Source: Candidatus Moraniibacteriota bacterium
Lineage (GTDB): Bacteria; Patescibacteriota; Minisyncoccia; Moranbacterales; UBA1568
Reading direction: 5' to 3'
DNA: 64,000 nucleotides
NCBI GenBank assembly: GCA_017983435.1
Contig: JAGOBM010000001.1
Location: 111,916 to 175,915 of the forward strand
Part shown: positions 2,817-58,346 of the stretch, piece by piece
Numbering within the stretch: the stretch's first letter is position 1
Layout of the letters: each line of letters starts with the position of its first letter
Notes under the pieces: model-generated
The model's input: only the letters and a program-made list of their open reading frames with translations
Told to the model about the DNA's origin: nothing
The model's database searches: none
Position numbers and translations under genes: made by a program

Positions 2817-2906
2817 TCTCTCTGGGGTGCGAAAGAGATTTTTTCTGATGCCCGAGGCTTCTGAGACGACAGCAAGGAAAAAATTTGCTTTCGTATCCCA
2901 GAGAGA
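2817..2906 (+). repeat. F1 hairpin repeat element copy 1 (core GATGCCCGAGGCTTCTGAG); degenerate partial half-copy immediately upstream (~2745-2816)
   Basis: ctctggggtgcgaaagag-attttttc-[tgatgcccgaggcttctgagacgacagcaagg]-aaaaaatttgctttcgtatcccagagag; imperfect long inverted repeat. Confidence 0.8.
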
Positions 2907-2944
2907 TCTATGTCTAAAATCGTAAACCCCGTTTTTCAATAATC

Positions 2945-5521
2945 ATGGCGACTCAGTCAAAAATCAAGAAAGCGGCTCCAGGCACTCCTTCCGAATGGAT
3001 CGAGGTGCGGGGCGCGCGTACCCACAATCTCAAGAATATCAATGTCGATATGCCGCGCAACGCGATGGTGGCGATCACTGGCTTGTCTGGATCGGGCAAA
3101 TCGTCGCTCGCGTTCGATACGATATTCGCCGAGGGGCAGCGCCGCTATGTCGAGTCGCTCTCGGCTTATGCCCGGCAGTTCTTGAATACAATGCAGAAGC
3201 CGGATGTGGACGAGATCCGCGGACTCTCGCCGGCTATCTCGATCGATCAGAAATCAGCGAGCCGTAATCCGCGCTCGACGGTCGCGACCGTGACGGAGAT
3301 TTATGACTATCTCCGCGTGCTCTTCGCCCGGCTCGGCCGGCCGCACTGTCTCACCTGCGATCGCGAGATCAAGAAGCTCTCATCGGAAGAGATGCTCGAG
3401 CTGGTCCGTGCACGGGTGAAGAAGGCCAAGCAGTCGGGGAGTCTGATCATCACGGCTCCGGTAGTCCGCGGACGCAAGGGCGAATACTATCAGTTGCTCT
3501 ACAATGCTCTCACGCAGGGTTTCTCGGAGATTTTCTTGGATGGTAAGCGGCACAGCCTGCGGGAGCAGATCCTGCTTTCGAAGAACAAGAAGCATGATAT
3601 CGATCTGATTGTCGATGAGATTCCGCTCGCCGAATTCAAGCAGTTCCCGCAGACGTCGGGAGAGCGGCTTTCGGAGGCGGTCGAGCGCACGCTCACGGAG
3701 AGCGAGGGGCTGGTCAAGGTGATGCTCGGCAGCGATGAGACTATTTTGTCAGCGCGCTTCTCATGCCCGTATGACGGTTTCTCGTATCCGGAAGTCGAGC
3801 CGAGACTCTTCTCGTTCAACTCTCCCTACGGCGCGTGCCAGGCGTGCAATGGTCTCGGGACGAAGCACTTCTTCGGCGATGAGGTCTGCGAAGTCTGCCA
3901 TGGGACGCGGCTCCGCGAGGAGGCGCTGCATATCCTAGTGGGCAGCAAGAATATCGTCGAGATCGTCTCGATGACGACCGGCGAGGCGCGCGCCTTCTTC
4001 GAGACGCTCGGTCTGACGAAGCGTGAGCAGGAGATCGCTTCGGTCGTGCTGCGTGAGATCGGAGGGCGTCTACAATTCCTCCTCGATGTCGGACTCAATT
4101 ATCTGACGCTCGATCGGCGGGCCAATACGCTTTCCGGCGGAGAAGCGCAGCGCATCCGTCTCGCTTCGCAGCTCGGCAGTCAGCTCGTCGGCGCGCTCTA
4201 TGTCCTCGATGAACCGACCATCGGTCTGCATAGCCGGGACAATGACCGTCTGATCGAGACACTCAAAAATCTGCAGGCGCTCGGCAATACGATCCTGATC
4301 GTCGAGCATGATGAGGATACGATCTATGCGAGCGACTATATCGTCGATATCGGACCGGGGGCGGGTGTGCACGGCGGCGAAGTGGTCGTCTCGGGCTTCC
4401 TCGAGGATCTCCTGACCGCTGACAAGAATACCTCCGGATCGTTGACACTCGCCTATCTGCGCGGAGAGGAAAAGATACCGGTACCGGAGATCAGACGTCA
4501 CAAAGAGAAAGGTTCGATCAAGGTCCGCGATGCCCGGCTCTTCAATATCAAAGACATGAATGTCGATGTGCCGCTCGGACGGTTCATCTCGGTGACCGGT
4601 GTCTCGGGATCAGGCAAGTCGACCTTCCTCTATGATATCCTCCACAAGAATCTCCAGGCTCGCTTCGATCGCCGCTACAAGTCGAATGAGGTCTTCTATT
4701 GCAAGAGCTTCACGGGGAGCGAATATCTTTCGCGCGCCGTGATGATCGACCAGTCGCCGATCGGCCGGACGCCGCGTTCCAATCCGGCGACTTACACCGG
4801 TGCCTGGACGCATGTCCGCGATCTCTTCGCGTCGACTGAGGAAGCGCGGGTACGCGGGTGGAAGAGCGGCCGCTTCTCGTTCAACCGGCCCGGGGGGCGC
4901 TGCGAGACCTGCGAGGGCAATGGCTTCATCGCGGTCGAGATGCACTTCCTGCCGACGGTCTATGTCTCCTGCGATGTCTGCGATGGCAAGCGCTTCACCA
5001 AGGAGACGCTCGAAGTGAAATACAAGCACAAGACGATCCATGAGGTGCTCGAGATGACGATCGAAGAGGCGTACTCGTTCTTCTATGAGATTCCGGCGAT
5101 CGCTGATCGGCTGAAGACGCTCAACGAGGTCGGTCTCGGCTATCTGAAACTCGGACAGTCAGCGACGACACTCTCGGGCGGCGAGGCACAGCGGGTGAAA
5201 ATCTCGTCCGAACTCTATCGGCCGCATGTCGAACGAACGATCTATCTGCTCGATGAGCCGACGATCGGATTGCACTATGCTGACGTGAAGAAGCTGATCG
5301 AAATCCTGGACCGGCTGGTCGATAAGGGGAATACGGTCATCACCATCGAACACAATCTCGATTTCATCAAATCATCCGATTACGTCATCGATATCGGTCC
5401 GGAAGGCGGATCGGGCGGAGGCAAGATCGTCGCGACCGGTACGCCGGAAGAAGTGGCTCGCGTCGCGGAGTCCTACACGGGACAGTATCTCAAGAAGGCC
5501 TTGCGCGCGGCGGCGAAATAA
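2945..5521 (+). CDS. uvrA: excinuclease ABC subunit A
   Basis: 858 aa; two ABC ATPase modules (GLSGSGKSS Walker A twice, LSGGEAQR signature twice), zinc-finger CxxC pairs, [29 protein letters not shown]. Confidence 0.9.
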
Positions 5522-5575
5522 CCGGTGGCTGAAGGAGTGGTATAATACCGGAAGAAAACAAGAACCAATCACGAC

Positions 5576-6202
5576 ATGGAATACGTATTGGGAATGCTCG
5601 TAGAGGCGCTCGCGGAACACTGGATGCTCGCGACCTTCGTCGGGACGCTGATTGCTGGTGAGAACGCGATACTGGTCGCGCTGGTCTTTGCATCTGGGCA
5701 GCCATCGCTGGTGTATGGCGGTGTGTTGGCAACCGCGTATATCGCAACGCTTTCAGCCGACTTGTTCTGGTATGCAGTCGGACGGTATGGGCTGGCTTCG
5801 ATCAGCCGGAAGGCATCGGTGGACGATATCCCAGCATCTGCCCTGAAGCGGCTGTTTGACGAACATCTTTTTGTATCGCTTCTGCTGATCAAATTTCTTG
5901 TCGGCCTGAGGGTGGCTTTGACTTTCTATCTTTCGATGAAGAAACAGCTGACCCCAGGACGGTATTTTCTTTTGGATTCGCTCGGGATTTTCGTATTTCT
6001 AGCAGTATTGGCAAGTGTCGCCTGGTGGGTGAATACCGGAACCAGTGACGCTTTTGAGACGTATCAGACCATCGTTAGACTAATGACAGTGCTCGCAGCC
6101 ATGATGATCGCGACGCATCTCACGACGTATGCCATCAGGCGGCGTGCTCGTCGTCAGGCGATGCAGGCTGCCGCTACCAGTGTCTCCGCACGAGAAGTAT
6201 GA
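5576..6202 (+). CDS. DedA/VTT-family membrane protein
   Basis: 208 aa polytopic membrane protein with DedA-like core ENAILVALVFASGQPSLVYGGVLATAYIATLSADLFWYAVGRYG; tggtataat extended -10 at ~5539-5547. Confidence 0.55.
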   Translation: MEYVLGMLVEALAEHWMLATFVGTLIAGENAILVALVFASGQPSLVYGGVLATAYIATLSADLFWYAVGRYGLASISRKASVDDIPASALKRLFDEHLFVSLLLIKFLVGLRVALTFYLSMKKQLTPGRYFLLDSLGIFVFLAVLASVAWWVNTGTSDAFETYQTIVRLMTVLAAMMIATHLTTYAIRRRARRQAMQAAATSVSAREV

Positions 6203-6801
6203 GTCGGCAGAAATCGGCGGTCATACTGGAAGATAGCGGCCAGATGATCCGCATACGTCGGCGGCGCGGCCTGAAGACACTCCGTATCGCGGTCGCTTCC
6301 GACGGCCAGGTGACGGTATCGGCGGCCAAGCTCGTACCGATTTTTCTCATCAAACGTTTCATCGTGCGGCAGCGGGATTGGATCAAAGCGGCGCAGGAAC
6401 GTTTCCAATCCACGGGCAGAGTGCCACGGCTTTCGGGAGAAGAACGTCGGCGGCGCTTCGTCCTGCATCGCGATCAGGCGGACCGTCTGGTAGAAGCGCG
6501 GGTGCGCTGGTACAGCGAGCAGCACGGATTCGATCCTGGTCCGATCACGATACGCGATCAGCGGACCCGATGGGGGAGCTGCTCGGCGCGCGGAGCTTTG
6601 TCATTCAATTATCGTATTGTCTTCCTGCCCGAGCGTCTCGCGGACTATATCGTCGTGCATGAGCTCTGCCATCTCCGCGAACTCAATCACGGGTCGCGCT
6701 TCTGGCGGCTGCTTGAGAGTATACTGCCGGACTCTGAACTCCGTCGCGAAGAATTGCGAGCACTCTCGCTTCTCGATGCCGGACGCGGGGATGGGTTGTA
6801 A
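6199..6801 (+). CDS. YgjP-like (DUF45/SprT-like) zinc metallohydrolase
   Basis: C-terminal HELCHLRELNHGSRFWRLLESILPD matches the YgjP/M48-like HExxH...NHxxxFW motif; overlaps upstream gene by 4 nt (ATGA). Confidence 0.65.
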   Translation: MSRQKSAVILEDSGQMIRIRRRRGLKTLRIAVASDGQVTVSAAKLVPIFLIKRFIVRQRDWIKAAQERFQSTGRVPRLSGEERRRRFVLHRDQADRLVEARVRWYSEQHGFDPGPITIRDQRTRWGSCSARGALSFNYRIVFLPERLADYIVVHELCHLRELNHGSRFWRLLESILPDSELRREELRALSLLDAGRGDGL

Positions 6802-6832
6802 ATATATTTGCCATGAAACGTGGTGTTTTCTG

Positions 6833-6916
6833 GGAGGAGCTGCAAGACGATTTTTCCTTCACTATCGCCTCGGAAGTCTCGGGCATCAGGAAAAACCGTC
6901 TTGCAGTTCCTCGGAG
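6833..6916 (-). repeat. F1 hairpin repeat element copy 2 (reverse orientation)
   Basis: gagctgcaagacgatttttcc-[ttcactatcgcctcggaagtctcgggcatca]-ggaaaaaccgtcttgcagttcctc; core is the reverse complement of the copy 1 core. Confidence 0.8.
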
Positions 6917-6956
6917 ACACTTAGAAAAAAAAAGCGTTCAATAGTCGATGTCTCTT

Positions 6957-7040
6957 CTGGGCCACGAAAGCAAATTTTCCTCTCGCTAGCGGTTTAAAGC
7001 ACCCTGGGGCTAAGGAAAACTTCTTTCGCGTCCCAGGAGA
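6957..7040 (-). repeat. F1 hairpin repeat element copy 3 (variant-2 core, reverse orientation)
   Basis: ctgggccacgaaagcaaattttcc-[tctcgctagcggtttaaagcaccctggggct]-aaggaaaacttctttcgcgtcccaggagag. Confidence 0.8.
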
Positions 7041-7119
7041 GTGCGTAGCTTTGAGGATTATAACTAAGGGGTCAAACAAGGTGGTATACTGATGGTGTAT
7101 TATCCTTCATATCAAAACT

Positions 7120-8349
7120 ATGTGGGCATGGCTACGAGGAAAGACGGGTGAGGCTCCGAAGAGCGGGGCGGGGCATGAGGAGATCAGCGAGAAGCGGACG
7201 ACCAAGATCGGTTACCTTTTGCTGTTTTTCATGGGACTCTTCATCGTGATTATCGGGCAGACGATCTTCAGCGATATCGGCCGGATACCGGATCAGCCGG
7301 AAGGACTCTCCTCGTGTTCGCAGGAGTTCGCGCTGCTTTTGGATCGCCGCTGGGTCGACGAGCCGATCACGAATACCGATGTCTATGCGACCGGATACGA
7401 TGAGATGACGGACACTTACCGGATGGATGATTTGACGAAGCAGCAGTGCCAGTTCAGCCGCTATGAAGAAGCCTCGGGTGCTGCTGCGACACTGCGGGCT
7501 GCTTACCTGGATCTCAAGCGATACTACGCGCTCGAGGATCCTATCAATCGCGTGGAAAGGGATCTGAATATTCTTGAGCCGGAGAGGACACTGAAGCAGG
7601 AAACATACGATATCAGTCTGCAGGAGCGTCAGGCTGGCATCACGGCGCCGGTGATGAATCCGGAGCAGGCCGGGAGTTCTCTCAAGACGGATACGCAGGC
7701 TGTCATGAGGCTCGAGTCAGAGAGGAAAGCTTTGCTGTCCGAACGGGCGGCTATATTGGACGCAATCGGCCGCACCGCGAGCCACTTCGAAACACAGCAG
7801 CAGCAGGCGAAAGAGCTCTATCTGTCGGATTACAACTGGTATCGCATCAAGGTCTTCCTGCTTTCATTGCTTTTCATTCTTCCACTGTTCTTGTATTCGC
7901 TCAAGCGGTATTTCGTCTGGAAGCGCGAGGATAGTCCGTACACGATCATTGTTGGTGCGTTGCTCGGCGCTTTCTCGGTCCTCTTGCTCCAGGTTGTCGG
8001 GATGTTTCTCTATGAGATCATTCCGCGCCGGATCATAGAGCTCTTGATCGAGTTCTTCACGCAGTTCGCATTCCTGCGCTACGTGCTGTATTACGGGTCG
8101 GTGCTGCTGGTGATCGCTTTGTTTGGCGGCATCGTGTACTACATCCAGAAGACGGTCTTCAGCAAGGAGGCGGTTGCGCTGCGGTCGCTCAAGGATCGCA
8201 AGTGTCCGACCTGCTCGTTTGCCATCGATCTCTCCATGAAGCACTGTCCAAAATGCGGGCATACGCTGCAGTCCGAGTGTGCGAGTTGCCATGGCCTGCG
8301 TTTCGAAGATCTGCCAGTCTGCCACCAGTGCGGTGCGCGTAGGGGATAG
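7120..8349 (+). CDS. hypothetical membrane protein with C-terminal double zinc-ribbon
   Basis: 409 aa; TM segments near residues 30-50 and 240-330; C-terminal CPTCSFAIDLSMKHCPKCGHTLQSECASCHGLRFEDLPVCHQCG; ggtggtatact extended -10 at ~7080. Confidence 0.5.
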   Translation: MWAWLRGKTGEAPKSGAGHEEISEKRTTKIGYLLLFFMGLFIVIIGQTIFSDIGRIPDQPEGLSSCSQEFALLLDRRWVDEPITNTDVYATGYDEMTDTYRMDDLTKQQCQFSRYEEASGAAATLRAAYLDLKRYYALEDPINRVERDLNILEPERTLKQETYDISLQERQAGITAPVMNPEQAGSSLKTDTQAVMRLESERKALLSERAAILDAIGRTASHFETQQQQAKELYLSDYNWYRIKVFLLSLLFILPLFLYSLKRYFVWKREDSPYTIIVGALLGAFSVLLLQVVGMFLYEIIPRRIIELLIEFFTQFAFLRYVLYYGSVLLVIALFGGIVYYIQKTVFSKEAVALRSLKDRKCPTCSFAIDLSMKHCPKCGHTLQSECASCHGLRFEDLPVCHQCGARRG

Positions 8350-8397
8350 TCTGATTGCCATGACGTTGGTCCTTTCTCCGGGCTGTGATGATATGTG

Positions 8398-8488
8398 CTC
8401 TCCTGGGACGTGAAAGAAGTTTTCCCTGCTGCCCGAGGTGCTTTAAACCGATAGCGAGGGGAAAATTTGCTTTCGTGACCCAGGAGAG
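8398..8488 (+). repeat. F1 hairpin repeat element copy 4 (variant-2 core)
   Basis: ctcctgggacgtgaaagaag-ttttcc-[ctgctgcccgaggtgctttaaaccgatagcgagg]-ggaaaatttgctttcgtgacccaggagag. Confidence 0.8.
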
Positions 8489-8552
8489 ATCTAGATAAAT
8501 AAACAAACAATCTTTTTCGCAGCCCGGGAGATGAGCCGCTCAAGGGGGATAT

Positions 8553-8587
8553 TGAAAAAGAAAAAGGACAACAGTGATGTTGTCCTT
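8553..8587 (-). terminator. intrinsic terminator for minus-strand gene 8606..8956
   Basis: Hairpin aaggacaaca-gtgatg-ttgtcctt preceded on + strand by an A-run (gaaaaagaaaaa), which gives a stem plus U-run on the minus-strand transcript. Confidence 0.5.
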
Positions 8588-8605
8588 GAGTGAGAGGGGT
8601 GGAGA

Positions 8606-8956
8606 CTAGTCGTAGTCTTCCGGTCGTTCGCCGGCCGCCGCCATTTGTCCGATGAAAGCGTGCCGATGGGCAGGGCGTCTATCGGATGGCTTGGGTTCGA
8701 CGGAAGCGAGAGAAGTCTCGTGCCTTAGTTGCTTCTGCGCGTTGGTAGCCCACAGACTCGCATCGGTGCCGAGGGTACGTTTGACGCGTCTCTCGACAGC
8801 CCGATAGAGATAGTTGTAGGTTGCCCGCTGGGCCGGATCAGAGTGGAAGATGCGATGCTGATGAGCAGCATCGGCGAAGGCGGTCTTGAAAGCGAGACCT
8901 TTGGCAAGATCGGTGATGACCTTGTCGCGGAGGGTGCACTCGAGTTCAGAAGACAT
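8606..8956 (-). CDS. hypothetical protein (only clear minus-strand gene in the window)
   Basis: 116-aa ORF with protein-like composition, downstream terminator and an AT-rich divergent promoter region shared with uvrC; competing + strand ORF 8729..9013 looks like junk. Confidence 0.45.
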   Translation of the reverse strand: MSSELECTLRDKVITDLAKGLAFKTAFADAAHQHRIFHSDPAQRATYNYLYRAVERRVKRTLGTDASLWATNAQKQLRHETSLASVEPKPSDRRPAHRHAFIGQMAAAGERPEDYD

Positions 8957-9019: not shown

Positions 9020-10276
9020 ATGCCGAAGACACCCTGGACCGAAAAGATGGATATCACAGTCTGGCGCCAGGATACGGCGCTTCTGCCTGAGCTGCCTGGC
9101 GTCTATTTTTTCTTGGACGCGGAGGGAGGGATACTCTATATCGGCAAGGCGACATCGCTCCGGGATCGGGTACGGAGCTATTTCTCGCAGGACATCATGG
9201 AGACGCGCGGGCCGAAAATCAGTCTGATGCTTGAGCGGGCCGAGACGATCGCCTATCGGGTCACCGACTCGGTGCTCGAAGCACTCTTGCTCGAGTCGCG
9301 GCTGATCAAGGAGCATCAGCCGGTCTACAATACCGACGAGAAAGACGATAAGAGCTTCAATCATGTCGTGGTAACAGACGAAGAGTTTCCTCGGATCCTC
9401 ATCGTGCGCGGCCGCGATTTCGCTCAGGGGAAATTCCGCGATCCGGTCCGGAAGATATTCGGACCGTTTCCGGCGGGGACGCAGCTGCGTGAGGTGATGA
9501 AGATCGTCCGGCGCATCTTTCCGTTCCGGGATACGTGCATTCCTGGATCCGGGAAGCCGTGCTTCCAGGCGCAGATCGGATTGTGTCCGGGTGTGTGTGC
9601 GGGGAGTATCGGGGCACCGGAATATCGTAAGCGGATCCGCGACATCGAACTTTTTTTCGAAGGCAAGAAATCATTGCTCAAGAGAGGCATGGAGCGCGCG
9701 ATGAAGGAGGCGGCGAAGGATTTGCGTTTCGAAGAGGCGGATCGGATGAAACGTCAGCTGTTTGCCGTGTCGCATATCCAGGATATGACGCTCGTGAAGG
9801 ATGATCTCCGGGAACTCAGGCTGCACCGCATCGAAGCGTATGATGTCGCACATCTCGGTGGAGAGGAGACGGTCGGGGTGATGACGGTCATCGAGCGCGG
9901 CCGACTGAACAAGGATGAGTATCGGCAGTTCGTCCTGCGCGGCGAGCATGGAGGCAATGATCTCTCCGCTCTGGAAGAAGTGCTGACGCGCCGACTCGGG
10001 CATCCGGAATGGAAGCTACCGGAAATCATCATCGTCGACGGCGCGCTGCTCCAGTACGGTGTGGCAGAGCGCGTGCTGGCACAGGCCGGACTCTCGATAC
10101 CGGTGCTCGGCGTGGTCAAAAATGCCCGGCATCATCCGGACCATCTCATCGGACCGGAGGGGCTGCGGCGGCGTTTCGAAGCGGACGCACTTCTGGTCAA
10201 TGCCGAGGCGCATCGTTTCGCTGTGGCTTTGCACCGGAAGCGGAAGCGAAAGACATTTCTCGAGTCGGGCACCTGA
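9020..10276 (+). CDS. uvrC: excinuclease ABC subunit C, short form lacking the C-terminal (HhH)2 domain
   Basis: 418 aa; N-terminal GIY-YIG (PGVYFFLDAEGGILYIGKATSLRDRVRSYF), central UVR domain, RNase H-like endonuclease domain (RIEAYDVAHLGGEETVGV); nothing after ~residue 418. Confidence 0.8.
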   Translation: MPKTPWTEKMDITVWRQDTALLPELPGVYFFLDAEGGILYIGKATSLRDRVRSYFSQDIMETRGPKISLMLERAETIAYRVTDSVLEALLLESRLIKEHQPVYNTDEKDDKSFNHVVVTDEEFPRILIVRGRDFAQGKFRDPVRKIFGPFPAGTQLREVMKIVRRIFPFRDTCIPGSGKPCFQAQIGLCPGVCAGSIGAPEYRKRIRDIELFFEGKKSLLKRGMERAMKEAAKDLRFEEADRMKRQLFAVSHIQDMTLVKDDLRELRLHRIEAYDVAHLGGEETVGVMTVIERGRLNKDEYRQFVLRGEHGGNDLSALEEVLTRRLGHPEWKLPEIIIVDGALLQYGVAERVLAQAGLSIPVLGVVKNARHHPDHLIGPEGLRRRFEADALLVNAEAHRFAVALHRKRKRKTFLESGT

Positions 10277-10356: not shown

Positions 10357-10683
10357 ATGAGATGGTTTTTCAGGGGAGTTCTTTGTGGGATAGGCGTCAT
10401 GGCAGTGTGGTACGGATTCGGTTTCGGATTCCTCCATGGTGCTATAGCCCTTTGCTTATCGGTGGCGGCTTTTGGTCTGCTTCTCAAGTGGCAGCGTCGG
10501 GATGCTTTGCTCCGAGAAGCGGTAGAGTGGGCCAATAGACGCCAGAAGACGGCGTTTATCGAGCAGCGAAATCGATGCGAGTCGGAACTCCGGCGTATCT
10601 TCCAGACACTGCGGGATCGCTATGGGATGTCCATCGAGGATGCCCGACAACATATCAGAGAGATGCGCCAAGCGCGTCGCTAG
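10357..10683 (+). CDS. small membrane protein (hypothetical)
   Basis: [43 protein letters not shown], two TM helices then a basic tail; strong SD aaaggagg 8 nt upstream. The longer ORF-track start 10009 overlaps uvrC and was rejected. Confidence 0.45.
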
Positions 10684-10712
10684 CCGGTACTTCAAGTACC
10701 GGCTTTTTCCTT
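10683..10712 (+). terminator. intrinsic terminator
   Basis: agccggtac-ttcaa-gtaccggct followed by tttttcc. Confidence 0.6.
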
Positions 10713-10796
10713 CCGTATTTACAGCGCGTAGGAAAGGCGATACAATGGAAAAACTGTGTATCGATTTTTTTTGTTGAACGTGGCTTTGTAAGGGGT

Positions 10797-13604
10797 ATGC
10801 CAGAAAGAAAACCGGTCATCGAAGTGCGTGGCGCTCGGGTGAACAACCTGAAGAATATCAATGTCGACATACCGCGGGATTCGCTCGTGGTAGTGACTGG
10901 TCTGTCCGGATCAGGCAAGTCATCGCTCGCTTTCGACGTCATCTTCGCAGAAGCGAATCGACGCTATGTCGAATCGCTTTCTTCATACGCGCGCAATTTT
11001 CTTGAAGGGTTCGAGAAGCCGGATGTCGATGCTATCAACAATCTTTCGCCGGCGATTTCCATCGACCAGAAGAGCGTGTCGCGCAGCCCTCGCTCCACGG
11101 TCGGCACGATGACCGAAGTCTATGATTTCCTTCGGGTGCTCTTCGCCAAGGCCGGAGAGCCGCATTGTCCGTCGTGTGGCAAGGCGCTTCTGCGGATGAC
11201 GGTGCGGCAGGTGATGGAAGAATTACTTTTGCTCCCTGATCGGATTGGCATTGTTCTTCTGGCGCACAGCAGCCAGACAGATGGCAAGCCGGAACGGGCA
11301 GCAATCGAGATGATCGATCACTGGGGGTATGTCCGGGTGCGGCGTGACGGCGAGGTGGTGCCGATCGCTGATGCGCTCGCGCTGGCTTCAACGACGGAAG
11401 AGAAACGTATCGATATCGTCATCGACCGCATCGTCATCGACCGGGCCCGTCCCGACAAGGAGCGCATCCTGGATTCTTTGGCGACGGGATTCCAGGTCGG
11501 TCAGGGGACGCTTTCGGTGGCAGTCAATGGGAGCGGAGAGGAGCGTGTCTACAATGACGAGTATCGCTGCGATGACTGTCAGGTCCGCCTTTCGGAGCCG
11601 ACCCCGAGTTTTTTCTCGTTCAATAATCCTGATGGAGCCTGTCCGAAATGCACCGGTCTCGGACGCACGCTTGAATTCGATCCTGACCTGATCATTCCGA
11701 ATCGCAACCTCTCACTGATCGAGGGGGCGATCCGCCCGTGGAGCAAGATGAACGGTGAGCGACAGCGCGAGAGCGGGCCGATGCAGGAGCTGGCCCAGCT
11801 CGCCAAGCGGTCGCATTTTTCCTGTTCAGTCCCGGTCAAGAAGCTGTCGGCCAAGCAGATGAAAGCGGTGCTCTGGGGAGAAGATGGCTGGCAGGAGGAT
11901 TCACGGAAATTCCGCGGCGTCATCGCGCTGCTCTCGGAAAAATACCGGGAGACGAAATCCGATCATCTGCGGCAGGAAATAGAGACGTTTATGCAGTCGC
12001 ATATCTGTCCGGCCTGCCAGGGGAAACGACTCAAGCCGTCATCGCTCTCGGTCAGCGTGCTTGGATATTCGATATTCGATCTGGCTGATATGAGCGCGGA
12101 GCGACTTTCGGCGATCACCAAAGAACTCAAGGCCGGTATCGTCAAGGCCGGTCACGAGAAGACCGTAATCGATACGCTGTTCCGTGAGATGGAGACGCGT
12201 CTTTTGGCGGTCGAGAAGGTCGGTCTCGGATATCTCTCACTCTCGCGGGGTGCTGATACGCTCTCAGGCGGCGAGGCACAGCGTATCCGTCTGTCCGTGC
12301 AGATGAAGTCCGGCCTCTCGGGTATCATCTATGTACTCGATGAGCCGTCAGTCGGATTGCACAGCCGCGATACGGACCGGTTGATCGGCGCATTGCTTGA
12401 TCTCAAGAGTGCCAACAATTCTCTGATCGTCGTCGAGCATGATGTCGCGATCATGCGTCAGGCGGATTACATCATCGACCTCGGACCGGGCGCCGGTACG
12501 GAGGGCGGTGAGGTGATTTTTGCGGGGACACCGGAGAGGCTTCTGAAATCCAAGACGCTGACGGGGGAATATCTTTCGGGTAAGCGGAAAGTGTCCGACA
12601 AGAAGAAGGCACGGCGCTGGAACGGGGAGAGTCTCACGGTGGTCGGCGCGAAGGAGCATAATCTCCGAGATATCGATGTCGAGATCCCTCTCGGTATGCT
12701 CGTGTCCATAGCGGGCGTATCCGGATCAGGCAAGTCATCGCTCGTCCATGACATCCTCTCGCGGGCGCTCTCGAAACATTTCTATCATGCCAAGACCGAG
12801 CCGGGGGCACACAAGAAGATCGTCGGACTCGAGAATATTGATAAGGTGATCACAGTGAATCAGGATCCGATCGGTCGGACACCCCGATCCAACGCGGCGA
12901 CCTACACTGGCGTCTTCAGTCTCATCCGCGATGTCTTCGCGGCGACTTCGGAAGCGGAGAAAGAGCGTTTTTCGGCGACGCACTTCAGCTTCAATATGAA
13001 GGGCGGCCGGTGCGAAGCCTGCCAGGGCGGCGGTTTGCGCAAGATCGAAATGTATCTCTTGCCGGATGTCTATGTACCCTGCGAAGTCTGCGGGGGGACC
13101 CGATACAATATCAAGACGTTGGCCGTCGAATATCGCGGGACGAATATCTCGCAGGTACTCCGGATGACCGTGTCGGAGGCGCGACATTTCTTCCTCGATC
13201 AGCCGCATATCGAAGAGAAGTTGCGGGTGCTCGAAGAAGTCGGTCTCGGCTATCTCGTGCTTGGGCAGAGTGCGACGAATCTCTCGGGCGGCGAGGCACA
13301 GCGTATCAAACTGGCGACCGAGCTGGCGCGCAAGTCGACCGGCAAGACGCTCTATATCCTCGATGAGCCAACTATCGGATTGCACTTCGAGGATGTGCGG
13401 CGATTGCTCGAAGTGCTTGAAGCGCTGGTCGATCGGGGCAATAGTGTGCTGGTCGTGGAGCACAATGTCGATGTCATCCGCGCTTCGGATTGGGTCATCG
13501 AGCTCGGTCCGGATGGCGGCGAGAAGGGCGGCGAACTGATTTTCTCCGGCGAGCCTACCAAACTCAAGGCCTGCAAGCGGAGCGCAACCGCGAAATATCT
13601 GTAA
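10797..13604 (+). CDS. uvrA: second UvrA paralog (excinuclease ABC subunit A family)
   Basis: 935 aa from ATG 10797 ([61 protein letters not shown]...); duplicated ABC modules and Zn fingers; aagggg SD; ORF-track N-terminal extension to 10575 rejected. Confidence 0.85.
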
Positions 13605-13635
13605 GAAATCCATAGTTCAGACGAATAAGAGGGGG

Positions 13636-13722
13636 GCGCTCCGGGAAACGCAAGAGTTTTCCCTGATGCCCGAGACTTCTGAGGCGATAGTGAAGGGAAG
13701 ACTCTTGCGTTTCCCGGAGTGT
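13636..13722 (+). repeat. F1 hairpin repeat element copy 5
   Basis: ctccgggaaacgcaagag-ttttcc-[ctgatgcccgagacttctgaggcgatagtgaagg]-gaag-actcttgcgtttcccggag; perfect 18-bp outer stem. Confidence 0.85.
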
Positions 13723-13778
13723 CCTCAATAGACAAAACATTGCGGTATTTGAAATTTGAGCTTTGATTTTTTACCAGT

Positions 13779-21953: not shown

Positions 21954-22301
21954 ATGGAATTGTCCTCATTCAAGTCTTTCGCGTTCAAACCGAGCTTTTC
22001 CGTCCGGAAGAGCATGATGTTCTGGTATCAGTCGTACCGGTGGTTTTTCATCTTCTTTTTCGTGGCCGTTATGGCGCTCGGCGGATGGAAATGGTATCAG
22101 AGCCTGTATCGCTATACCTGGACTGAGACACAGAAACAGGAATTTCTGAAATCGTATGCCGAGGCGACTGATTTCCGTTCGAGCCGCTTCGAAACGGTAA
22201 TCAAAGGGCTGGATGAACGGAGCCAGAAGAATGCTGTGGTGCCATCCATAGAGCATGATTTGTTCCGATTGGATGCACCGCCGGAGAAGGATAATCGTTG
22301 A
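21954..22301 (+). CDS. small membrane protein (hypothetical, pilus block)
   Basis: 115 aa, TM WFFIFFFVAVMALGGW. Confidence 0.35.
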   Translation: MELSSFKSFAFKPSFSVRKSMMFWYQSYRWFFIFFFVAVMALGGWKWYQSLYRYTWTETQKQEFLKSYAEATDFRSSRFETVIKGLDERSQKNAVVPSIEHDLFRLDAPPEKDNR

Positions 22302-23380
22302 CGAAAACGCCTAGTGTGATAGGGTGGTGGATGATGCAGATACCAGAAACGAGGCGTGAAGCCTTACAAAGACATTTCCAGGACGTGCCGGCATGGCGGC
22401 TGACTCAGATTGAGCAGGCGCTTTTTTTGCCGTCTGTCCGCTCATTCGCTGATATGACGGCCCTGCCTGCCGCCTGGCGGGAGGCTTTGGATCCGCAGGG
22501 GATCTTTGTCGCCTATCGCGAGACGCGGGTATTCGGGAGTCAGAAGCAGGATACGTTCAAGGCATTGCTCGGTCTGGCTGATGGGAAGCGTATCGAGACG
22601 GTGCTGATGCGCAATGCGCGCGGTTCTTTTACGGTCTGTGTCTCGACGCAGGTCGGTTGCGCTATGGCCTGCACGTTCTGCGCTACCGGCAAGATGGGTT
22701 TCGCTCGTAATCTCTCGAACGATGAGATCGTGGACCAGGTCAGATTCTGGCGGTATTTCCTCGCGGATCATCCCGAGCTGCCGGATCGGATCAGCAATGT
22801 CGTCTATATGGGTATGGGTGAGCCGCTGGCGAATTATGATTTTGTGAAACAATCTCTGCAGACGCTCTTGACACATACGGATATCGGGCCAACGCATATC
22901 ACGGTATCGACGGTCGGCCTGATACCGATGCTCGAGCAGCTGCTCAAGGATCCGGAATGGCCGCCGGTCCGGCTGGCGGTATCGCTCCACAGCGCGGATC
23001 CGAAGACGCGTCAGGAGATCATGCCGACTTCATACCCTGATTTTCTCGAAAAGCTCGCGGCGTGGGCACAGCGGTATTTCGAAGCCTTCGATACCAAACG
23101 GCGGCATCTGACGTTCGAATATATCATGCTGTCGGGTGTGAACGATACGCCGCGGCATGCCAATATGCTGATCGCCTTTGCCCGACGTATCGGGAAAGCG
23201 CGGATCAATCTGATTCCCTATAACTATACGAGTGATATCTTCCAGCAGAGCGTGACGGATGAGATCGACCGGTTCCAGCGAGAGCTCGAGCGGGCCGGGG
23301 TCGACGTGACCCGCCGACGGACCATGGGCGAGGATATCGCCGCCGCCTGCGGACAGCTCGCACTTCGGAACGAGCATTGA
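22298..23380 (+). CDS. rlmN: 23S rRNA (adenine2503-C2)-methyltransferase RlmN (radical SAM)
   Basis: CAMACTFCATGKMG radical-SAM CxxxCxxC motif and RlmN-like layout; TTG at 22298 or ATG at 22331 as start. Confidence 0.85.
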   Translation: MTKTPSVIGWWMMQIPETRREALQRHFQDVPAWRLTQIEQALFLPSVRSFADMTALPAAWREALDPQGIFVAYRETRVFGSQKQDTFKALLGLADGKRIETVLMRNARGSFTVCVSTQVGCAMACTFCATGKMGFARNLSNDEIVDQVRFWRYFLADHPELPDRISNVVYMGMGEPLANYDFVKQSLQTLLTHTDIGPTHITVSTVGLIPMLEQLLKDPEWPPVRLAVSLHSADPKTRQEIMPTSYPDFLEKLAAWAQRYFEAFDTKRRHLTFEYIMLSGVNDTPRHANMLIAFARRIGKARINLIPYNYTSDIFQQSVTDEIDRFQRELERAGVDVTRRRTMGEDIAAACGQLALRNEH

Positions 23381-23413
23381 AAGATGCATGTTTTTCGGGT
23401 ATACTGCCTTTCT

Positions 23414-24583: not shown

Positions 24584-24654
24584 ACGGGAATATTGAATGT
24601 TGAATAGAGAATAGAGGTTTTAGACCTGACTGGCTGCGAACAATATTTTTCCTA

Positions 24655-24752
24655 GACGTCTCTCGGGGGACGGAAGTAAATTTTTTCCTCACTATCGGCT
24701 TAAAGCGCCTCGGGCATCAGAAAAAATCTCTTTCGCACCCCCGAGAGACAGA
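24655..24752 (-). repeat. F1 hairpin repeat element copy 6 (hybrid core, reverse orientation)
   Basis: gacgtctctcgggggacggaag-taaattttttcc-[tcactatcggcttaaagcgcctcgggcatcag]-aaaaaatctctttcgcacccccgagagac. Confidence 0.8.
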
Positions 24753-24852
24753 CTAAAAACTTCGGCATCATTCTTAAAAAGTGGACTCTCTTCTTATATG
24801 GATATCAGCGGGGGCGTACTGAATATTTTCTTCGTGTAAGGTGAAGGGGGTA

Positions 24853-24930
24853 GCTGGGGTGGAAAGAAGGTTTTCCTTGCCCCAGGGCTTCTGGGACGAT
24901 AGCGAGGGAAAGTCTTCTTTTCACCCCAGC
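24853..24930 (+). repeat. F1 hairpin repeat element copy 7
   Basis: gctggggtggaaagaag-gttttcc-[ttgccccagggcttctgggacgatagcgagg]-gaaag-tcttcttttcaccccagc. Confidence 0.8.
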
Positions 24931-24980
24931 AGAAAATAACATCCTGAGTGATGGGTATTTCGTGTTAGTATGGAGGCATT

Positions 24981-35075: not shown

Positions 35076-35088
35076 AAAGATTTTCCAG

Positions 35089-35116: not shown

Positions 35117-35130
35117 TTATCACGAATAGC

Positions 35131-37204: not shown

Positions 37205-37259
37205 TTGAATAAAATAGGGTAGAATATTTTCGGTTCATTGCGAAGAAAAGGGGTATGCC

Positions 37260-37994: not shown

Positions 37995-38000
37995 CACAAA

Positions 38001-38040
38001 GGCGTCCGAGAGTACCGAGTACTCGAGGGCGTCTTTTTTT
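38001..38040 (+). terminator. intrinsic terminator
   Basis: GC-rich palindrome ggcgtccgagagtaccgagtactcgagggcgtc followed by ttttttt. Confidence 0.55.
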
Positions 38041-38044
38041 ATTA

Positions 38045-38219
38045 CCAAACCCTGTCTGCCGACAGGCAGGGAAGCGAGCGAAACGAAAGTGTACTTTCGT
38101 TTTCGATCCGCCAGCTGGCGGACGGTAAAATCGGGTTAAATACCCCGTGGCTTGCCACGGAAAGTAAAACAAGCCGAGGCTTGTTTTAGTGTCCGGAGCT
38201 TGCTCCAGGGTAAATACCC
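38045..38219 (+). other. hairpin-dense non-coding segment (8 consecutive short stem-loops), candidate structured RNA
   Basis: ccctgtctgccgacaggcaggg; cgaaacgaaagtgtactttcgttttcg; ccgccagctggcgg; gggttaaataccc; ccgtggcttgccacgg; aaaacaagccgaggcttgtttt; ggagcttgctcc; gggtaaataccc. No ORF present. Confidence 0.25.
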
Positions 38220-38230
38220 GTTATATATCA

Positions 38231-38336
38231 CAGAAAAAAATCCCAGACTGCAGAAGAGCTTTTTTTGATGCACTACGCTTCCGAGCGTACAGCAAGAAAA
38301 AAATCTTCCGCAGTCTGGGATTTTTTGTGGTGTATG
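38231..38336 (+). repeat. F3 hairpin repeat element copy b
   Basis: cagaaaaaaatcccagactgcagaagag-ctttttttgatgcactacgcttccgagcgtacagcaagaaaaaaa-tcttccgcagtctgggattttttgtgg; 1-2 substitutions vs copy a. Confidence 0.85.
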
Positions 38337-38385
38337 ATTTTTTTTGTATAACATCGATGTTTCATTGGTTTTTTTCTTAGCTACG

Positions 38386-38455
38386 AAAGCAGATTTTCCC
38401 CTCACTATCGCCTCGGAAGTCTCGGGTATCATGGAAAACCTCTTCCGCAGCTAAG
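38386..38455 (-). repeat. F1 hairpin repeat element copy 8 (reverse orientation)
   Basis: cttagctacgaaagcagattttcc-[cctcactatcgcctcggaagtctcgggtatcat]-ggaaaacctcttccgcagctaag. Confidence 0.8.
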
Positions 38456-38529
38456 AAAAAGCCGAACATTTTTGGAGCTTTGCCATATCTCTCGTATGAT
38501 AGAGGGGCGGATTTTTTAAATACTTGTGT

Positions 38530-39497: not shown

Positions 39498-40757
39498 ATG
39501 GCTATGAAGTACGATACTTTAAAGAAGGCGGACAAGCAGGTGTATGCGGCCGTGAGAGGCGAAGGGAAACGGCAGGAGGAAGGACTCGAGATGATCGCGT
39601 CGGAGAACTATGTCTCGGAGGCGGTACTCGAGGCGCTCGGGACGGTATTCACCAACAAATATTCCGAAGGCTACCCGGGCCGCCGCTACTATGGTGGACA
39701 GCAATACACGGATCAGGTCGAGACGCTCGCAATCGATCGGGTCAAGAAGCTGTTCGGTGCCGAGCATGCCAATGTGCAGCCACACTCGGGCGCGCAGGCC
39801 AATCTCGCGGTGTATGCCGCGCTTCTCAATCCGGGTGATACGGTGCTCGGTATGGATCTCTCGCATGGCGGTCATCTGACGCATGGTCATCCGGTGACGC
39901 TGCCGGCGAAGGTGTATGATTTTGTCCGTTACAAGACGGAACCGGATGGGAGCATCGATTATAAGAAGCTCGAAGCGCTCGCGAAGGAAACGAAGCCGAA
40001 GCTCATGCTGGCTGGCTTCTCATCGTATACCCGGCAGATCGATTATGAAAAATTCGTGAAGATCGGGAAGAAAGTCGGGGCACTCACAATGATGGATATG
40101 GCGCACATCGCCGGATTGGTAGCGGGCAAAGCAGTGCCGAATCCGGTCGAATATTTCGATATCGTCACCGCGACCACACACAAGACGCTGCGCGGACCTC
40201 GGGGCGGATTGATCCTTTGTCGGGAAAAATATGCCGCCGCTATCGACAAAGCGGTATTTCCGGGGACGCAGGGCGGACCGCATATGCATGTTATCGCGGC
40301 CAAAGCGGTCGCTTTTGGCGAGGCGCTCCGAGCTGATTTCAAGAAATATGCCAAGCAGACTCTCAAGAACGCGAAGGTGCTCGAGCTGGAACTCGTGAAG
40401 GAAGGCGCGCAGGTGCTGTTCGGCGGGACGGAGAATCATATGATCCTCATCGACACGGTGGCGAGCTATGGCCTCTCAGGCAAGGAGGCAGAGGAGCGGC
40501 TCGATGCGATCGGTATCACGGTGAACAAGAATGTCATCCCGGATGATCCTCGTGGTCCGCTCGATCCGTCAGGTCTGCGCATCGGCGTACCGGCGATTAC
40601 GACGCGCGGGATGAAGGAGGCTGAGACCCGACTGATCGCCCGAGCGATAGCGCGTATGCTGCAGGTCTCAGCGGATGATAAGGGATACCAGCGGATCCGA
40701 GTGGTGCTCCGCAAGGAAATCATGCAGCTCTGCAAAGCATTTCCGTTGTATAAGTGA
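39498..40757 (+). CDS. glyA: serine hydroxymethyltransferase
   Basis: 419 aa; SENYVSEAVLEALGTVFTNKYSEGYPGRRYYGG and PLP-lysine region TTTHKTLRGPRGG. Confidence 0.9.
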   Translation: MAMKYDTLKKADKQVYAAVRGEGKRQEEGLEMIASENYVSEAVLEALGTVFTNKYSEGYPGRRYYGGQQYTDQVETLAIDRVKKLFGAEHANVQPHSGAQANLAVYAALLNPGDTVLGMDLSHGGHLTHGHPVTLPAKVYDFVRYKTEPDGSIDYKKLEALAKETKPKLMLAGFSSYTRQIDYEKFVKIGKKVGALTMMDMAHIAGLVAGKAVPNPVEYFDIVTATTHKTLRGPRGGLILCREKYAAAIDKAVFPGTQGGPHMHVIAAKAVAFGEALRADFKKYAKQTLKNAKVLELELVKEGAQVLFGGTENHMILIDTVASYGLSGKEAEERLDAIGITVNKNVIPDDPRGPLDPSGLRIGVPAITTRGMKEAETRLIARAIARMLQVSADDKGYQRIRVVLRKEIMQLCKAFPLYK

Positions 40758-40773
40758 GCCCATCTTTTTGGTC

Positions 40774-40858
40774 TTTCTGGTTACGAAAGCAAATTTTTTC
40801 CTCGCTATCGGTTTAAAGCACCTCGGGCAGCAGAAAAAATCTCTTTCGTAACCAGAAA
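40774..40858 (-). repeat. F1 hairpin repeat element copy 9 (variant-2 core, reverse orientation); partial right-arm fragment of a further copy at ~40893-40925
   Basis: tttctggttacgaaagcaaattttttcc-[tcgctatcggtttaaagcacctcgggcagcag]-aaaaaatctctttcgtaaccagaaa; nearby ggaaaaatttgcttgcgtatcccgaaacag resembles the copy 1 right arm. Confidence 0.8.
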
Positions 40859-40988
40859 GCGCCCTTTATTGAGCATGAGTTATACATGAAGTGAGGAAAA
40901 ATTTGCTTGCGTATCCCGAAACAGATCACCAAAATCGATGCTTCTCTAGGAAGCTAGGCAGCTAATGAAGCTAATAAGCTATTAAAAT

Positions 40989-41777
40989 ATGAAGGGTATT
41001 ATTCTCGCGGGCGGTACCGGGACGAGGCTCCTGCCGCTCACGTCGATCATCTCGAAGCAGCTCTTGCCGGTGTATGATCGGCAGATGATCTTCTATCCGA
41101 TCAACACGCTCATCACGGCGGGCATCACGGATATCCTCATCGTCGTCTCGCCAGCCAACTCGGGGGATTATCTCAACCTACTCGGTTCGATGTTCCGGAA
41201 GCACGGCATCCAGATTTCCTTCGTCGTCCAGAAGCGGCCCGGGGGATTGCCGGAGGCCTTCATCCTCGGCGAGGATTTTCTGGATGGCGGTCCGGTCACG
41301 CTCGTGCTGGGCGACAATATCTTCGAGGATGATTTTTCTGAAGCGATACGTACCTTCGAATCAGGAGGGCGGATTTTCGCAAAAGAGGTATCTGATCCGG
41401 AGCGTTTCGGTGTGGTCGAATTTGATGCCGATGGGACCGTGCTCTCGATCGAGGAGAAACCGGCTCTCCCGAAAAGCCGCTTCGCTATCCCGGGCGTCTA
41501 TATCTTCGATGGGACCGTGTCGGCTGTCTCCAAGAGTCTGGCTCCATCGGCGCGCGGCGAGCTCGAGATCGTGGATATCCATAAACACTATCTCGGACAG
41601 GGATCGCTCGATGTCCGGCCGATCGACGGAGCCTGGTTCGATACCGGGACGCATGACGCGCTGCTTGAGGCGAGTGTCTACGCCAAAGAGAAAGGCATCG
41701 GACAGAAATTCCATCCGCTCGTGAACGAAGCCATCAAAGAGTTCAGTGCGGAATGGAAGAAACTGGTGTCGTTGTAG
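40989..41777 (+). CDS. rfbA: glucose-1-phosphate thymidylyltransferase
   Basis: MKGIILAGGTGTRLLPLT (GxGTRL nucleotidyltransferase motif), RmlA-like; 262 aa. Confidence 0.85.
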   Translation: MKGIILAGGTGTRLLPLTSIISKQLLPVYDRQMIFYPINTLITAGITDILIVVSPANSGDYLNLLGSMFRKHGIQISFVVQKRPGGLPEAFILGEDFLDGGPVTLVLGDNIFEDDFSEAIRTFESGGRIFAKEVSDPERFGVVEFDADGTVLSIEEKPALPKSRFAIPGVYIFDGTVSAVSKSLAPSARGELEIVDIHKHYLGQGSLDVRPIDGAWFDTGTHDALLEASVYAKEKGIGQKFHPLVNEAIKEFSAEWKKLVSL

Positions 41778-56099: not shown

Positions 56100-56120
56100 T
56101 TCGGACTGCCTGAGGAAATT

Positions 56121-57824: not shown

Positions 57825-57825
57825 C

Positions 57826-58206
57826 ATGCTGTTTCGACCCAAACAGGTGGTCTGCGTCTGTATCGGTGTGCGGATAACCTCGACCTGCTGGAGACTCGGT
57901 ACGGTCGTGAAGGATGTCTCCTCGAGACAGAACACACTGTATAAAGTAGCGGTATCGATGCGTGATCCGGATGGATGGGATGACGGTTCGGAAAGACAGG
58001 GTGAGGAGCACGAATGGTGTAGTAATATCATCCTGCCGGATGATTCGCTCTCGCTTCTGTTCGCTCGAGTATCGAGCCGGAGTTTCCTTATCCGGTTTGC
58101 TTCGAACGAAGTATTGCAGTATCGCGAGCAGTATACCGTGTCTCCGATGCAGCTCTGTGTCGCTGACCCAGGCGTGCTGTGGAAGAAAATCTTCCAGAAG
58201 ACATGA
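57826..58206 (+). CDS. hypothetical small protein
   Basis: 126 aa from ATG 57826 with aggga SD; Cys/Trp-containing, no family; followed by a strong terminator. Confidence 0.3.
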   Translation: MLFRPKQVVCVCIGVRITSTCWRLGTVVKDVSSRQNTLYKVAVSMRDPDGWDDGSERQGEEHEWCSNIILPDDSLSLLFARVSSRSFLIRFASNEVLQYREQYTVSPMQLCVADPGVLWKKIFQKT

Positions 58207-58236
58207 CTGCCCAGAACCTTGGGCAGTCTTTTTTTA
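58205..58236 (+). terminator. intrinsic terminator
   Basis: gactgcccag-aacctt-gggcagtc then ttttttt. Confidence 0.75.
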
Positions 58237-58255
58237 CTGCGGTCGTTATTGTGTC

Positions 58256-58346
58256 GCCGGCCCTCATCCAGCCAGAAGTTTTTCCTGAAGCCCGAGACTT
58301 CTGAGGCGATAGTGAAGGAAAAATTTGCTGGCTGGGCGAGGGCCTC
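58256..58346 (+). repeat. F1 hairpin repeat element copy 10
   Basis: ggccctcatccagccagaag-tttttcc-[tgaagcccgagacttctgaggcgatagtgaagg]-aaaaatttgctggctgggcgagggcc. Confidence 0.8.

Follow-up and report, generated by a model that had tools for sequence, protein, structure and literature searches.

The 64-kb window analysed here (the whole stretch of 64,000 nucleotides from contig JAGOBM010000001.1, positions 111,916 to 175,915) contains ten full copies of an intergenic hairpin, hereafter the main family, which on comparative grounds, and with a probability of roughly 60%, represents a lineage-restricted, non-coding and non-autonomous mobile hairpin family in a Candidatus Moranbacteria chromosome. 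The family itself is real and apparently undescribed, and it is a member of a known general class, the dispersed palindromic intergenic elements. A non-autonomous mobile element is favoured because the copies are intergenic and restricted to one lineage, are gained, lost, inverted and decaying among relatives, form sub-lineages that extend across loci, and fold as a hairpin on one strand.

Identification and extent of the hairpin family

A hairpin is in + orientation where the + strand reads CTGATGCCCGAG...CGATAGYGARGG ("forward"), and its limits were set by extending the stem to its base, which gave lengths of 78-96 nt. Alignment A1, comprising the ten window copies and four copies of a related genome, was used to build the covariance model R1, and alignment A2 comprises 34 copies (10 from the window and 24 from related contigs, whose loci are designated by L numbers) aligned to R1. 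Searched against the window with filters off, R1 recovered all ten copies at 65-102 bits (E<=2.5e-15), and the next-best matches, at 42-45 bits, were a sister subfamily, sf2 (Table 1). Two core patterns, allowing <=3 mismatches, matched the window four and three times, against 0.00 matches expected from 100 dinucleotide-preserving shuffles. The ten full copies and two fragments listed in the initial annotation, which had also proposed building a covariance model from them, are thus all present, as judged from the R1 scores, the shuffles and the spacers of relatives. The design described there is likewise borne out by the alignment: a variable but complementary outer stem, then TTTTCC and GGAAAA around a conserved core with two apex variants and hybrids. 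The list was nevertheless incomplete, as three sf2 copies and two hairpins of a third family lie in similar spacers. Overall, the main family occupies ~1.4% of the window, or ~2% when the two other hairpin families are included.

All 34 copies are intergenic and none overlaps a coding sequence, which extends the same statement of the initial annotation from the window to the related contigs. They lie 6-72 nt past stop codons or 36-80 nt ahead of starts. One open reading frame (ORF), 58088-58528(-), overlaps a copy and is spurious, the true upstream gene being 57826-58206. The further claim that the copies always mark operon boundaries could not be established, given that the copy at 40773 stands between glyA and rmlA, which are only 49 bp apart in L083, and the cluster at 38.2-38.5 kb separates rmlB from rmlD, between which L005 has 20 bp.

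Table 1. Hairpins and hairpin fragments of the three families; coordinates refer to the window unless a related locus is named
Feature	Coordinates	Strand	R1 score (bits)	Remarks
Main family, variant 1b (GAGGC-UUCUGA-GACGA)	2814-2909	+	101.6	36 nt upstream of first uvrA-like gene
Decayed one-arm relic of an older copy	~2745-2790	-		aligns to left arm of full L078 copy at the orthologous spot
Main family, variant 1	6829-6917	-	83	28 nt after stop of gene 6199-6801
Main family, variant 2, apex partly decayed	6952-7041	-	72	positional orthologue in L028, 90% identical
Main family, variant 2, heptaloop GCUUUAA	8398-8488	+	95.7	
Main family, variant 1	13632-13726	+	87	minimum free energy -60.6 kcal/mol, z -9.7
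Main family, variant 2b (GGC/GCC apical stem)	24657-24750	-	82	
Main family, divergent apex CCCAG/CUGGG	24853-24930	+	65.5	
Main family, variant 1	38371-38460	-	100.4	inside 1.3-kb rmlB-rmlD insertion
Main family, variant 2	40773-40859	-	96.2	16 nt past glyA stop
3' half-copy, truncated	40893-40927	+		matches GGAAAAATTTGCTTKCGTATCCC... of 2814-type right arm; absent from L005
Main family, variant 1	58259-58344	+	86.8	~20 nt after canonical terminator
sf2	35133-35222	+	43	absent from L064 and L005
sf2	38235-38326	+	45	head-to-head with main-family 38371-38460
sf2	58379-58474	-	42	paired with main-family 58259-58344
sf2 in relatives	L013 5459-5539			
sf2 in relatives	L060 1578-1668			
Third long-hairpin family (AAAATTTCC...GGAAATTTT)	28325-28418	-		spacer ~220 bp shorter in L049 and L064
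Third long-hairpin family	35282-35372	+		80% identical to L003 3765-3881; absent from L064 and L005

Conserved apex and covarying stem

The unit is the whole hairpin, with ~40 stacked pairs broken by a 2x1 GA/A loop, a 2x2 loop and tandem G·A pairs. RNAalifold applied to A1 returned a single long hairpin with double changes in 19 of its 31 pairs. Across the 34 copies of A2, standard pairing was found in 97.4% of 1027 stem cells and two-sided changes in 22 of the 31 pairs (144 cells); none of 500 shuffles reached any observed measure, and sliding the partners by 1-3 columns reduced pairing to 41-54%. Fitting A2 to the model structure favours pairing, and the margin is nonetheless large. The covariation predicted in the initial annotation is therefore both real and strong.

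Between a distant metagenome-assembled genome (MAG) and the variant 1 copies of the window, identity was 87% in the apex (alignment columns 29-74, ~45 nt), 56% in the mid stem and 33% in the outer stem; between the MAG and all window copies, outer-stem identity was 43%, and both outer-stem values are near random. Mean identity between copies was 64% in the arms versus 79% in the apex. In the apex, a UGC/GYG helix is placed over the 2x1 loop (GA opposite A) and is followed by the 2x2 loop (CC opposite UA) and by an apical helix of five positions (G·A, A·G, G-C, then A·G/G·A/G-C, then C-G/U-A), which is closed by UUCYGA in variant 1 or GCUUUAA in variant 2. This apical helix is preferred over the two invariant pairs drawn by RNAalifold, because its last two positions covary and the helix of sf2 is fully Watson-Crick. 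Within the variant 1 apex, CCGAG is repeated.

Several likenesses to described motifs were considered and rejected. CUGAUG recalls the hammerhead core, but neither the invariant A9 nor the GAAA is there, and other copies have CUGCUG instead. The loop beside the tandem G·A pairs is 2x2, not the 3+0 of a standard K-turn. A mini-palindrome in each arm (GAAA..TTTC), similar to repetitive extragenic palindromic (REP) units, is weak and missing from several copies.

Strand specificity

The forward strand folds better in 32 of the 34 copies under RNA parameters (mean free-energy difference, ddG, -8.4 kcal/mol) and in 30 of them under DNA parameters (mean ddG -3.2 kcal/mol). The stems of A2 contain 130 G·U and 12 A·C cells, counted as cells and not as independent events, and 36 G·U and 11 A·C remain without the four majority-G·U columns. 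Because changes pass via G·U and not via A·C, pairing is kept on the forward strand only. Relative to the flanking genes, the sense orientation is found in ~10 copies and the antisense in 13, the latter retaining the forward-strand G·U pattern. A strand-specific, covarying fold of this kind fits a single-stranded nucleic acid, and RNA and single-stranded DNA (ssDNA) fit alike. No strand asymmetry was seen in sf2 or in the third hairpin family.

Turnover between relatives

Spacers were compared one by one in loci syntenic with the window at 75-89% identity, following the presence/absence comparison proposed in the initial annotation. Copies proved to be absent, inverted, doubled, decayed or swapped in apex variant in the orthologous spacers of relatives, and among relatives 70-89% identical almost every comparable spacer differs in one of these ways. 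The spacer 2690-2945 holds a relic (-) and a full copy (+) in the window and one full copy (-), opposite in orientation to that at 2814-2909, in L078. In the spacer 6801-7120, the first copy is oppositely oriented in L028 and has unrelated arms, the second is a positional orthologue, and L071 and L054 contain an inverted copy together with 1.7 kb of extra genes. The spacer 8349-8606 carries a copy in the same place and orientation in L028, with a variant 1 apex and four doubly compensated pairs, and an inverted copy in L071. No copy occupies the spacer 13604-13779 in L054. Of the two copies in the spacer 24583-24981, L049 and L064 lack the second and have the first as an orthologue with 6-7 doubly compensated pairs.

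The segment 37198-38528, an ORF with two hairpins, corresponds to 20 bp in L005, the most distant element-bearing relative, in which one copy is kept in place: its orthologue of the spacer 40757-40989 has the same orientation and a variant 1 apex, where the window has variant 2. In L083, the glyA-rmlA spacer measures 49 bp and is empty. The copy at 58259-58344 has no counterpart in L081 or L083, and these two relatives (70-75% identity) contain no copy in 22 kb each, versus three main-family and two sf2 copies in the window.

Arm identity reaches 92-97% between copies at unrelated loci and in different genomes, which indicates that the whole hairpin is the copied unit. The double changes and apex swaps in positional orthologues have their simpler account in other family members converting or replacing these copies ectopically; compensation recurring in place is the less simple, though possible, alternative.

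Further features were observed in the spacers compared. The extra 1.7 kb (L071 2383-4072, equivalent to L054 7446-9135) encodes a 260-aa ORF, methyltransferase-like by eye only, and a 156-aa ORF. Window positions 7041-7120 are ~97% identical to L028 978-1052, compared with 84-89% for the coding DNA of these genomes; these ~80 nt lie directly upstream of gene 7120-8349, which encodes a membrane protein with a double zinc ribbon, and may constitute a conserved promoter or leader. The 1.3-kb rmlB-rmlD insertion at 37198-38528 encodes a 244-aa ORF without a Pfam match, with a third-position G+C content (GC3) of 0.53 versus ~0.67 in its neighbours, and also holds a compound palindrome at 38134-38219.

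Sister hairpin families and terminators

Subfamily sf2 shares with the main family the GA/A internal loop and a UUCCGA loop, and its apical stem is Watson-Crick (UACGC/GCGUA). It forms an almost perfect Watson-Crick palindrome with an A-run on the 5' side and a T-run on the 3' side, like a bidirectional terminator. Three of the five sf2 copies lie 20-60 nt from an inverted main-family copy, and this composite recurs at 38.2-38.5 kb, at 58.3 kb and in L060. In L060, the sf2 and main-family copies occupy a spacer of ~330 bp, and the syntenic spacer of L004 (73-78% identity), a MAG of 'Ca. Moraniibacteriota' (JAYRFE01), is ~75-100 bp long and hairpin-free; a further ~47 kb of L004-related contigs yielded no copies. 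The third-family hairpins are ~95-115 nt long and possibly belong to the same superfamily as the main family. The hairpins of the other families at 28.3 and 35.1-35.4 kb are absent from orthologous spacers among L049, L064 and L005.

Canonical terminators, consisting of a short G+C stem and a T-run, are located at ~35088-35118 and 58207-58235, directly upstream of hairpins, and the former is conserved in L064 and L005. The presence of canonical terminators beside hairpins indicates that this lineage uses ordinary terminators. No main-family copy has a 3' T-run directly after the stem, and several outer stems have a T-run on the 5' side and an A-run on the 3' side, the opposite of terminator polarity. 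The stem is also long, at ~40 bp versus 5-12 bp for canonical terminators of the same genome. Because the element lacks a U-tract, some copies stand just downstream of canonical terminators and relatives lack the element, it is not a required terminator, and the insulator/terminator option raised in the initial annotation is unsupported in its terminator form. The idea that a 67-nt core was inserted into existing host palindromes or terminators was also rejected, since element-free orthologous spacers have no such palindrome and the polarity of the outer stem is opposite to that of terminators.

Host and distribution

The window has a G+C content of 55%, nearly all of its genes are on the + strand, and its GC skew is uniformly positive, so that it represents one replichore. 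Its housekeeping genes include two uvrA paralogues, uvrC, pilC, pilM, mgsA, ahpC, mraZ/rsmH, rmlCBDA and glyA, and further genes encode a GT4 glycosyltransferase, DUF4012, murJ, lepA, pcm, mltG, dnaJ, recJ and rnhA. The LepA protein is 86% identical to proteins named Candidatus Moranbacteria or Moraniibacteriota at NCBI, the gene content resembles that of the Candidate Phyla Radiation (CPR), and L060 is syntenic with a Moraniibacteriota MAG. As judged from sequence, the host is a bacterium of the CPR/Patescibacteria, Candidatus Moranbacteria. On the strength of the LepA identity, the L060 synteny and the CPR-like gene content, an affiliation with Bdellovibrionales was rejected. A cyanobacterial origin was also rejected, as HIP1 (GCGATCGC) is not enriched (5 sites versus 6.9 expected).

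Among 185,579 species genomes, the core was found in four contigs of one MAG only, the 19 other loci being chance matches within genes. This MAG (CAZOKB01: L001, L003, L005 and L013), titled 'uncultured Bdellovibrionales bacterium', is syntenic with the window at 75-78% nucleotide identity, and its title is probably wrong because of that synteny with a window whose LepA is so close to Moranbacteria. A metagenome scan returned 18 true loci, whereas the viral contigs, plasmids and phages searched gave no family match. One 2.5-kb contig of JGI metagenome Ga0268298 is 100% identical to window positions 22260-24740; other source metagenomes include ENA OFRG01/OFRM01 and NCBI JAHZTL01. Abundance is patchy, with 10 copies per 64 kb here versus 4 pattern matches in an entire related MAG, and relatives 82-86% identical have roughly half the copy density of the window. 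At non-syntenic loci, the genes beside copies are unrelated housekeeping genes (EF-P, TatC, DedA, SIMPL, VIT1 and a phosphatase), and a search for a Y1/HUH transposase close to copies gave none.

The uvrA paralogues (2945-5521 and 10575-13604) flank a UvrC-like gene at 9020-10276, which combines GIY-YIG and RNase H endonuclease domains. One UvrA paralogue has 858 aa and no match to the UvrA DNA-binding domain; the other has 1009 aa and contains this domain. Hairpins lie around this cluster: that at 2814-2909 is 36 nt upstream of the first uvrA, those at 6829-8488 are between the first uvrA and uvrC, and that at 13632-13726 is 28 nt past the second uvrA paralogue.

Mobility and alternative explanations

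Among the options offered in the initial annotation, namely a structured RNA, a mobile hairpin resembling MITEs (miniature inverted-repeat transposable elements) and an insulator/terminator module, the mobile hairpin is supported by the turnover described above, although the strict MITE features, terminal repeats and target duplication, are absent. If the family is mobile, its copies would spread in the form of a single strand, ssDNA or RNA, that has folded up. From the combination of a conserved apex with free ends, we infer a trans-acting protein that recognises a single strand by its folded apex; the apex would serve as a handle for this putative protein, encoded elsewhere in the genome, and the ends would need only to pair. 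Insertion would be tolerated in short AT-rich spacers just past stop codons or terminators, and ectopic conversion probably also homogenises the copies. Effects on transcripts, such as 3'-end protection, RNase III cleavage or pausing, are plausible and would be secondary. A bolder proposition is that the family exemplifies a new type of mobile hairpin, in which a conserved, non-canonically paired apex (with its GA/A loop, tandem G·A pairs and fixed hexa- or heptaloop), and not the termini, is recognised on a specific single strand, possibly RNA, by an enzyme unlike known transposases, and which would be spreading in the streamlined genomes of CPR bacteria; this we consider doubtful.

Several observations weigh against mobility. 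No target-site duplication, common flank motif or direct repeat was found around the 34 copies with their stems extended, and no clean pair of empty and filled sites was found, the spacers being too diverged. No transposase or RAYT-like gene was detected in ~250 kb by phmmer with IS200/IS608 TnpA queries, and Pfam searches of ~50 genes revealed no transposase. The window copies are oriented 5:5 on a single replichore, and such a ratio of about 50:50 is a poor fit to an IS608-like lagging-strand mechanism; that the mobile hairpin does not account for the lack of orientation bias is a weakness. Finally, the 4-7 doubly compensated pairs in positional orthologues could just as well reflect selection in place for a host function. 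A 244-aa ORF that seemed to recur beside copies was rejected as a transposase, as the ORFs of that length in L026 and L069 encode ribosomal protein L1, to which the window ORF bears no relation, the shared length being coincidental.

Such a host function could be that of cis-acting RNA hairpins, in which stems formed in read-through RNA would protect 3' ends, insulate, pause or terminate transcription, or be cut by RNase III. REP, ERIC and Correia elements have documented roles of this kind, which the location of the copies 6-72 nt after stops or 36-80 nt before starts would suit, as would hairpins that are very stable in either orientation (-23 to -54 kcal/mol). Positional orthologues also keep their pairing through 4-7 double changes, and one copy has been held in place between the window and L005. 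However, the direction of transcription has no bearing on which strand is favoured, the ~10 sense and 13 antisense copies showing the same G·U pattern, and a simple protective hairpin has no need of a conserved 45-nt apex. In addition, there is no U-tract, canonical terminators precede some copies, and relatives have no element at the same sites, including the 49-bp glyA-rmlA spacer. Host selection for such hairpins therefore appears unlikely as the main explanation.

The strand-specific fold, the conserved G·U pairs and the covarying A·G/G·A/G-C and C-G/U-A apical pairs are also what would be expected of independently transcribed small structured RNAs of ~90 nt, with an apex of non-canonical pairs binding a protein, and the apex is 87% conserved where coding DNA is only 75-78% identical. 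Yet no promoter-like or other conserved flank precedes the forward strand, no terminator follows the hairpin and no Rfam relative was found. Transcription of every second copy would have to run antisense among closely spaced co-directional genes, and fast gain, loss and inversion at orthologous sites is atypical of RNA genes, which makes a small-RNA family quite improbable.

Recognition could instead take place at the DNA level, if the copies, as cruciforms or single-stranded hairpins, were binding sites of a host protein that acts in nucleoid organisation, replication priming (sso- or primosome-assembly-like) or recombination. The better forward fold in 30 of 34 copies under DNA parameters, the CCGAG repeat of the variant 1 apex and the likeness of TAGCGA/TAGTGA to TAGCGT, the CS-6 six-mer of ssoA origins, would be in keeping with such sites. 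However, with both orientations on one replichore, a priming role would leave half of the copies on the wrong template strand, relatives lack copies without any replacement, no plasmid or phage match was found and the six-mer likeness is within chance, so that this explanation has very little probability.

Least probable of all are functionless palindromes left by an old duplication burst and kept by arm-to-arm correction through template switching or gene conversion: quasi-palindrome correction does yield compensated changes without selection, and sf2 is a near-perfect palindrome without strand bias, but correction would erase G·U pairs, which are kept at four positions in most copies and elsewhere outnumber A·C 3:1, conservation is highest in the apex, for which no partner arm can serve as a template for correction, and decaying copies (the 2745 relic, the 40893 half-copy and the 6952 apex) indicate that arm correction is not automatic.

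Significance

CPR genomes are very small and tightly packed, and a limited literature search found no report of a dispersed repeat family in them. The main family differs between relatives that are 82-89% identical. If mobile, it would mark recent dynamics of the genome in an uncultured lineage, be usable for strain typing, and be a source of assembly breaks, and it would point to a putative mobilising activity. Its build, with a conserved apex, free paired ends, one favoured strand and no orientation bias, is the reverse of that of MITEs and REPINs and therefore offers concrete material for testing the way in which such elements are recognised. From the alignment, a covariance model is at hand for screening CPR genomes.

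Comparison with known repeat classes

The initial annotation had recognised no described class in the repeat. Consistent with this, a search of the whole window against Rfam 15 gave 0 matches at gathering thresholds, and in E-value mode only microRNA-precursor and other long-hairpin models appeared, at 20-40 bits versus thresholds of 60-100; the general kind, dispersed intergenic palindromic repeats, is by contrast well known. A limited search of the literature on Bdellovibrio and CPR bacteria found no such repeat described, and neither the 64-kb window nor the ~190 kb of related loci yielded a cognate autonomous insertion sequence.

In behaviour, the main family comes nearest to REPINs. These ~89-bp intergenic hairpins often show compensatory changes and have been proposed to fold as ssDNA or mRNA and to be moved by RAYT tyrosine transposases (PMC3116915, PMC3337134). 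What is conserved in them is the pair of inverted REP units close to the ends, which each contain a short palindrome, and the spacer at the centre varies freely. The hosts named in the two papers are Pseudomonas, E. coli and Nostoc, and the copies persist at orthologous sites, are lineage-specific and number tens to hundreds (PMC3116915, PMC3337134). The main family shares with them a near-perfect hairpin of ~90 nt, compensatory changes, a strictly extragenic location, restriction to a lineage and copies that persist at orthologous sites. However, conservation is reversed here (apex 87% versus outer stem 33%), and the GTAG/CGTC end tag is lacking, CGTAG occurring inside the 3' arm only in L001, L003, L037 and the window copy at 38371. 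Furthermore, no RAYT was found in ~250 kb using IS200 and IS608 TnpA queries, and the host is a CPR bacterium.

Bacterial MITEs and palindromic repeats such as Correia/NEMIS, ERIC/IRU, RUP, BOX and SMAG are small, non-coding and dispersed in spacers in both orientations, fold as long hairpins in transcripts, and vary in copy number between related genomes. By definition, MITEs have terminal inverted repeats that are conserved between copies, usually with a target-site duplication such as TA. Small size, dispersal, both orientations and variable copy number are shared with the main family, the named families being compared by description only. Conserved terminal repeats are not, as outer-stem identity between copies is 33-43%, and neither is the target-site duplication.

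In the IS200/IS605 family, the enzyme recognises an imperfect, strand-specific DNA hairpin and not a duplex end, transposition proceeds through a single-stranded intermediate, and no target duplication arises. In these elements and their non-autonomous derivatives, PATEs, the subterminal hairpins on the left and on the right differ from each other, the cleavage motifs (tetranucleotides) are conserved, and orientation is biased in step with replication. A strand-specific hairpin and the lack of target duplication are shared, whereas the main family has a single hairpin, no conserved flank motif, a 5:5 orientation and no detected TnpA-like ORF. An ssoA origin is a long strand-specific hairpin with CS-6 in the loop and an RSB site, and it works in one orientation on a rolling-circle replicon. 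The likeness of the main family to such origins is limited to strand specificity and to TAGCGA/TAGTGA beside the apical helix, which resembles their CS-6 hexamer TAGCGT, a likeness of six nucleotides only and within chance; here the copies are chromosomal, in both orientations and without a plasmid match. Intrinsic terminators share a stable hairpin soon after the stop codon, but their U-tract is absent from the main family and present in sf2, whose flanking runs are like those of a bidirectional terminator. Collectively, what is known is the general class of dispersed palindromic intergenic elements, and what is novel is the inverted conservation pattern, the strand-specific fold and the unusual host.

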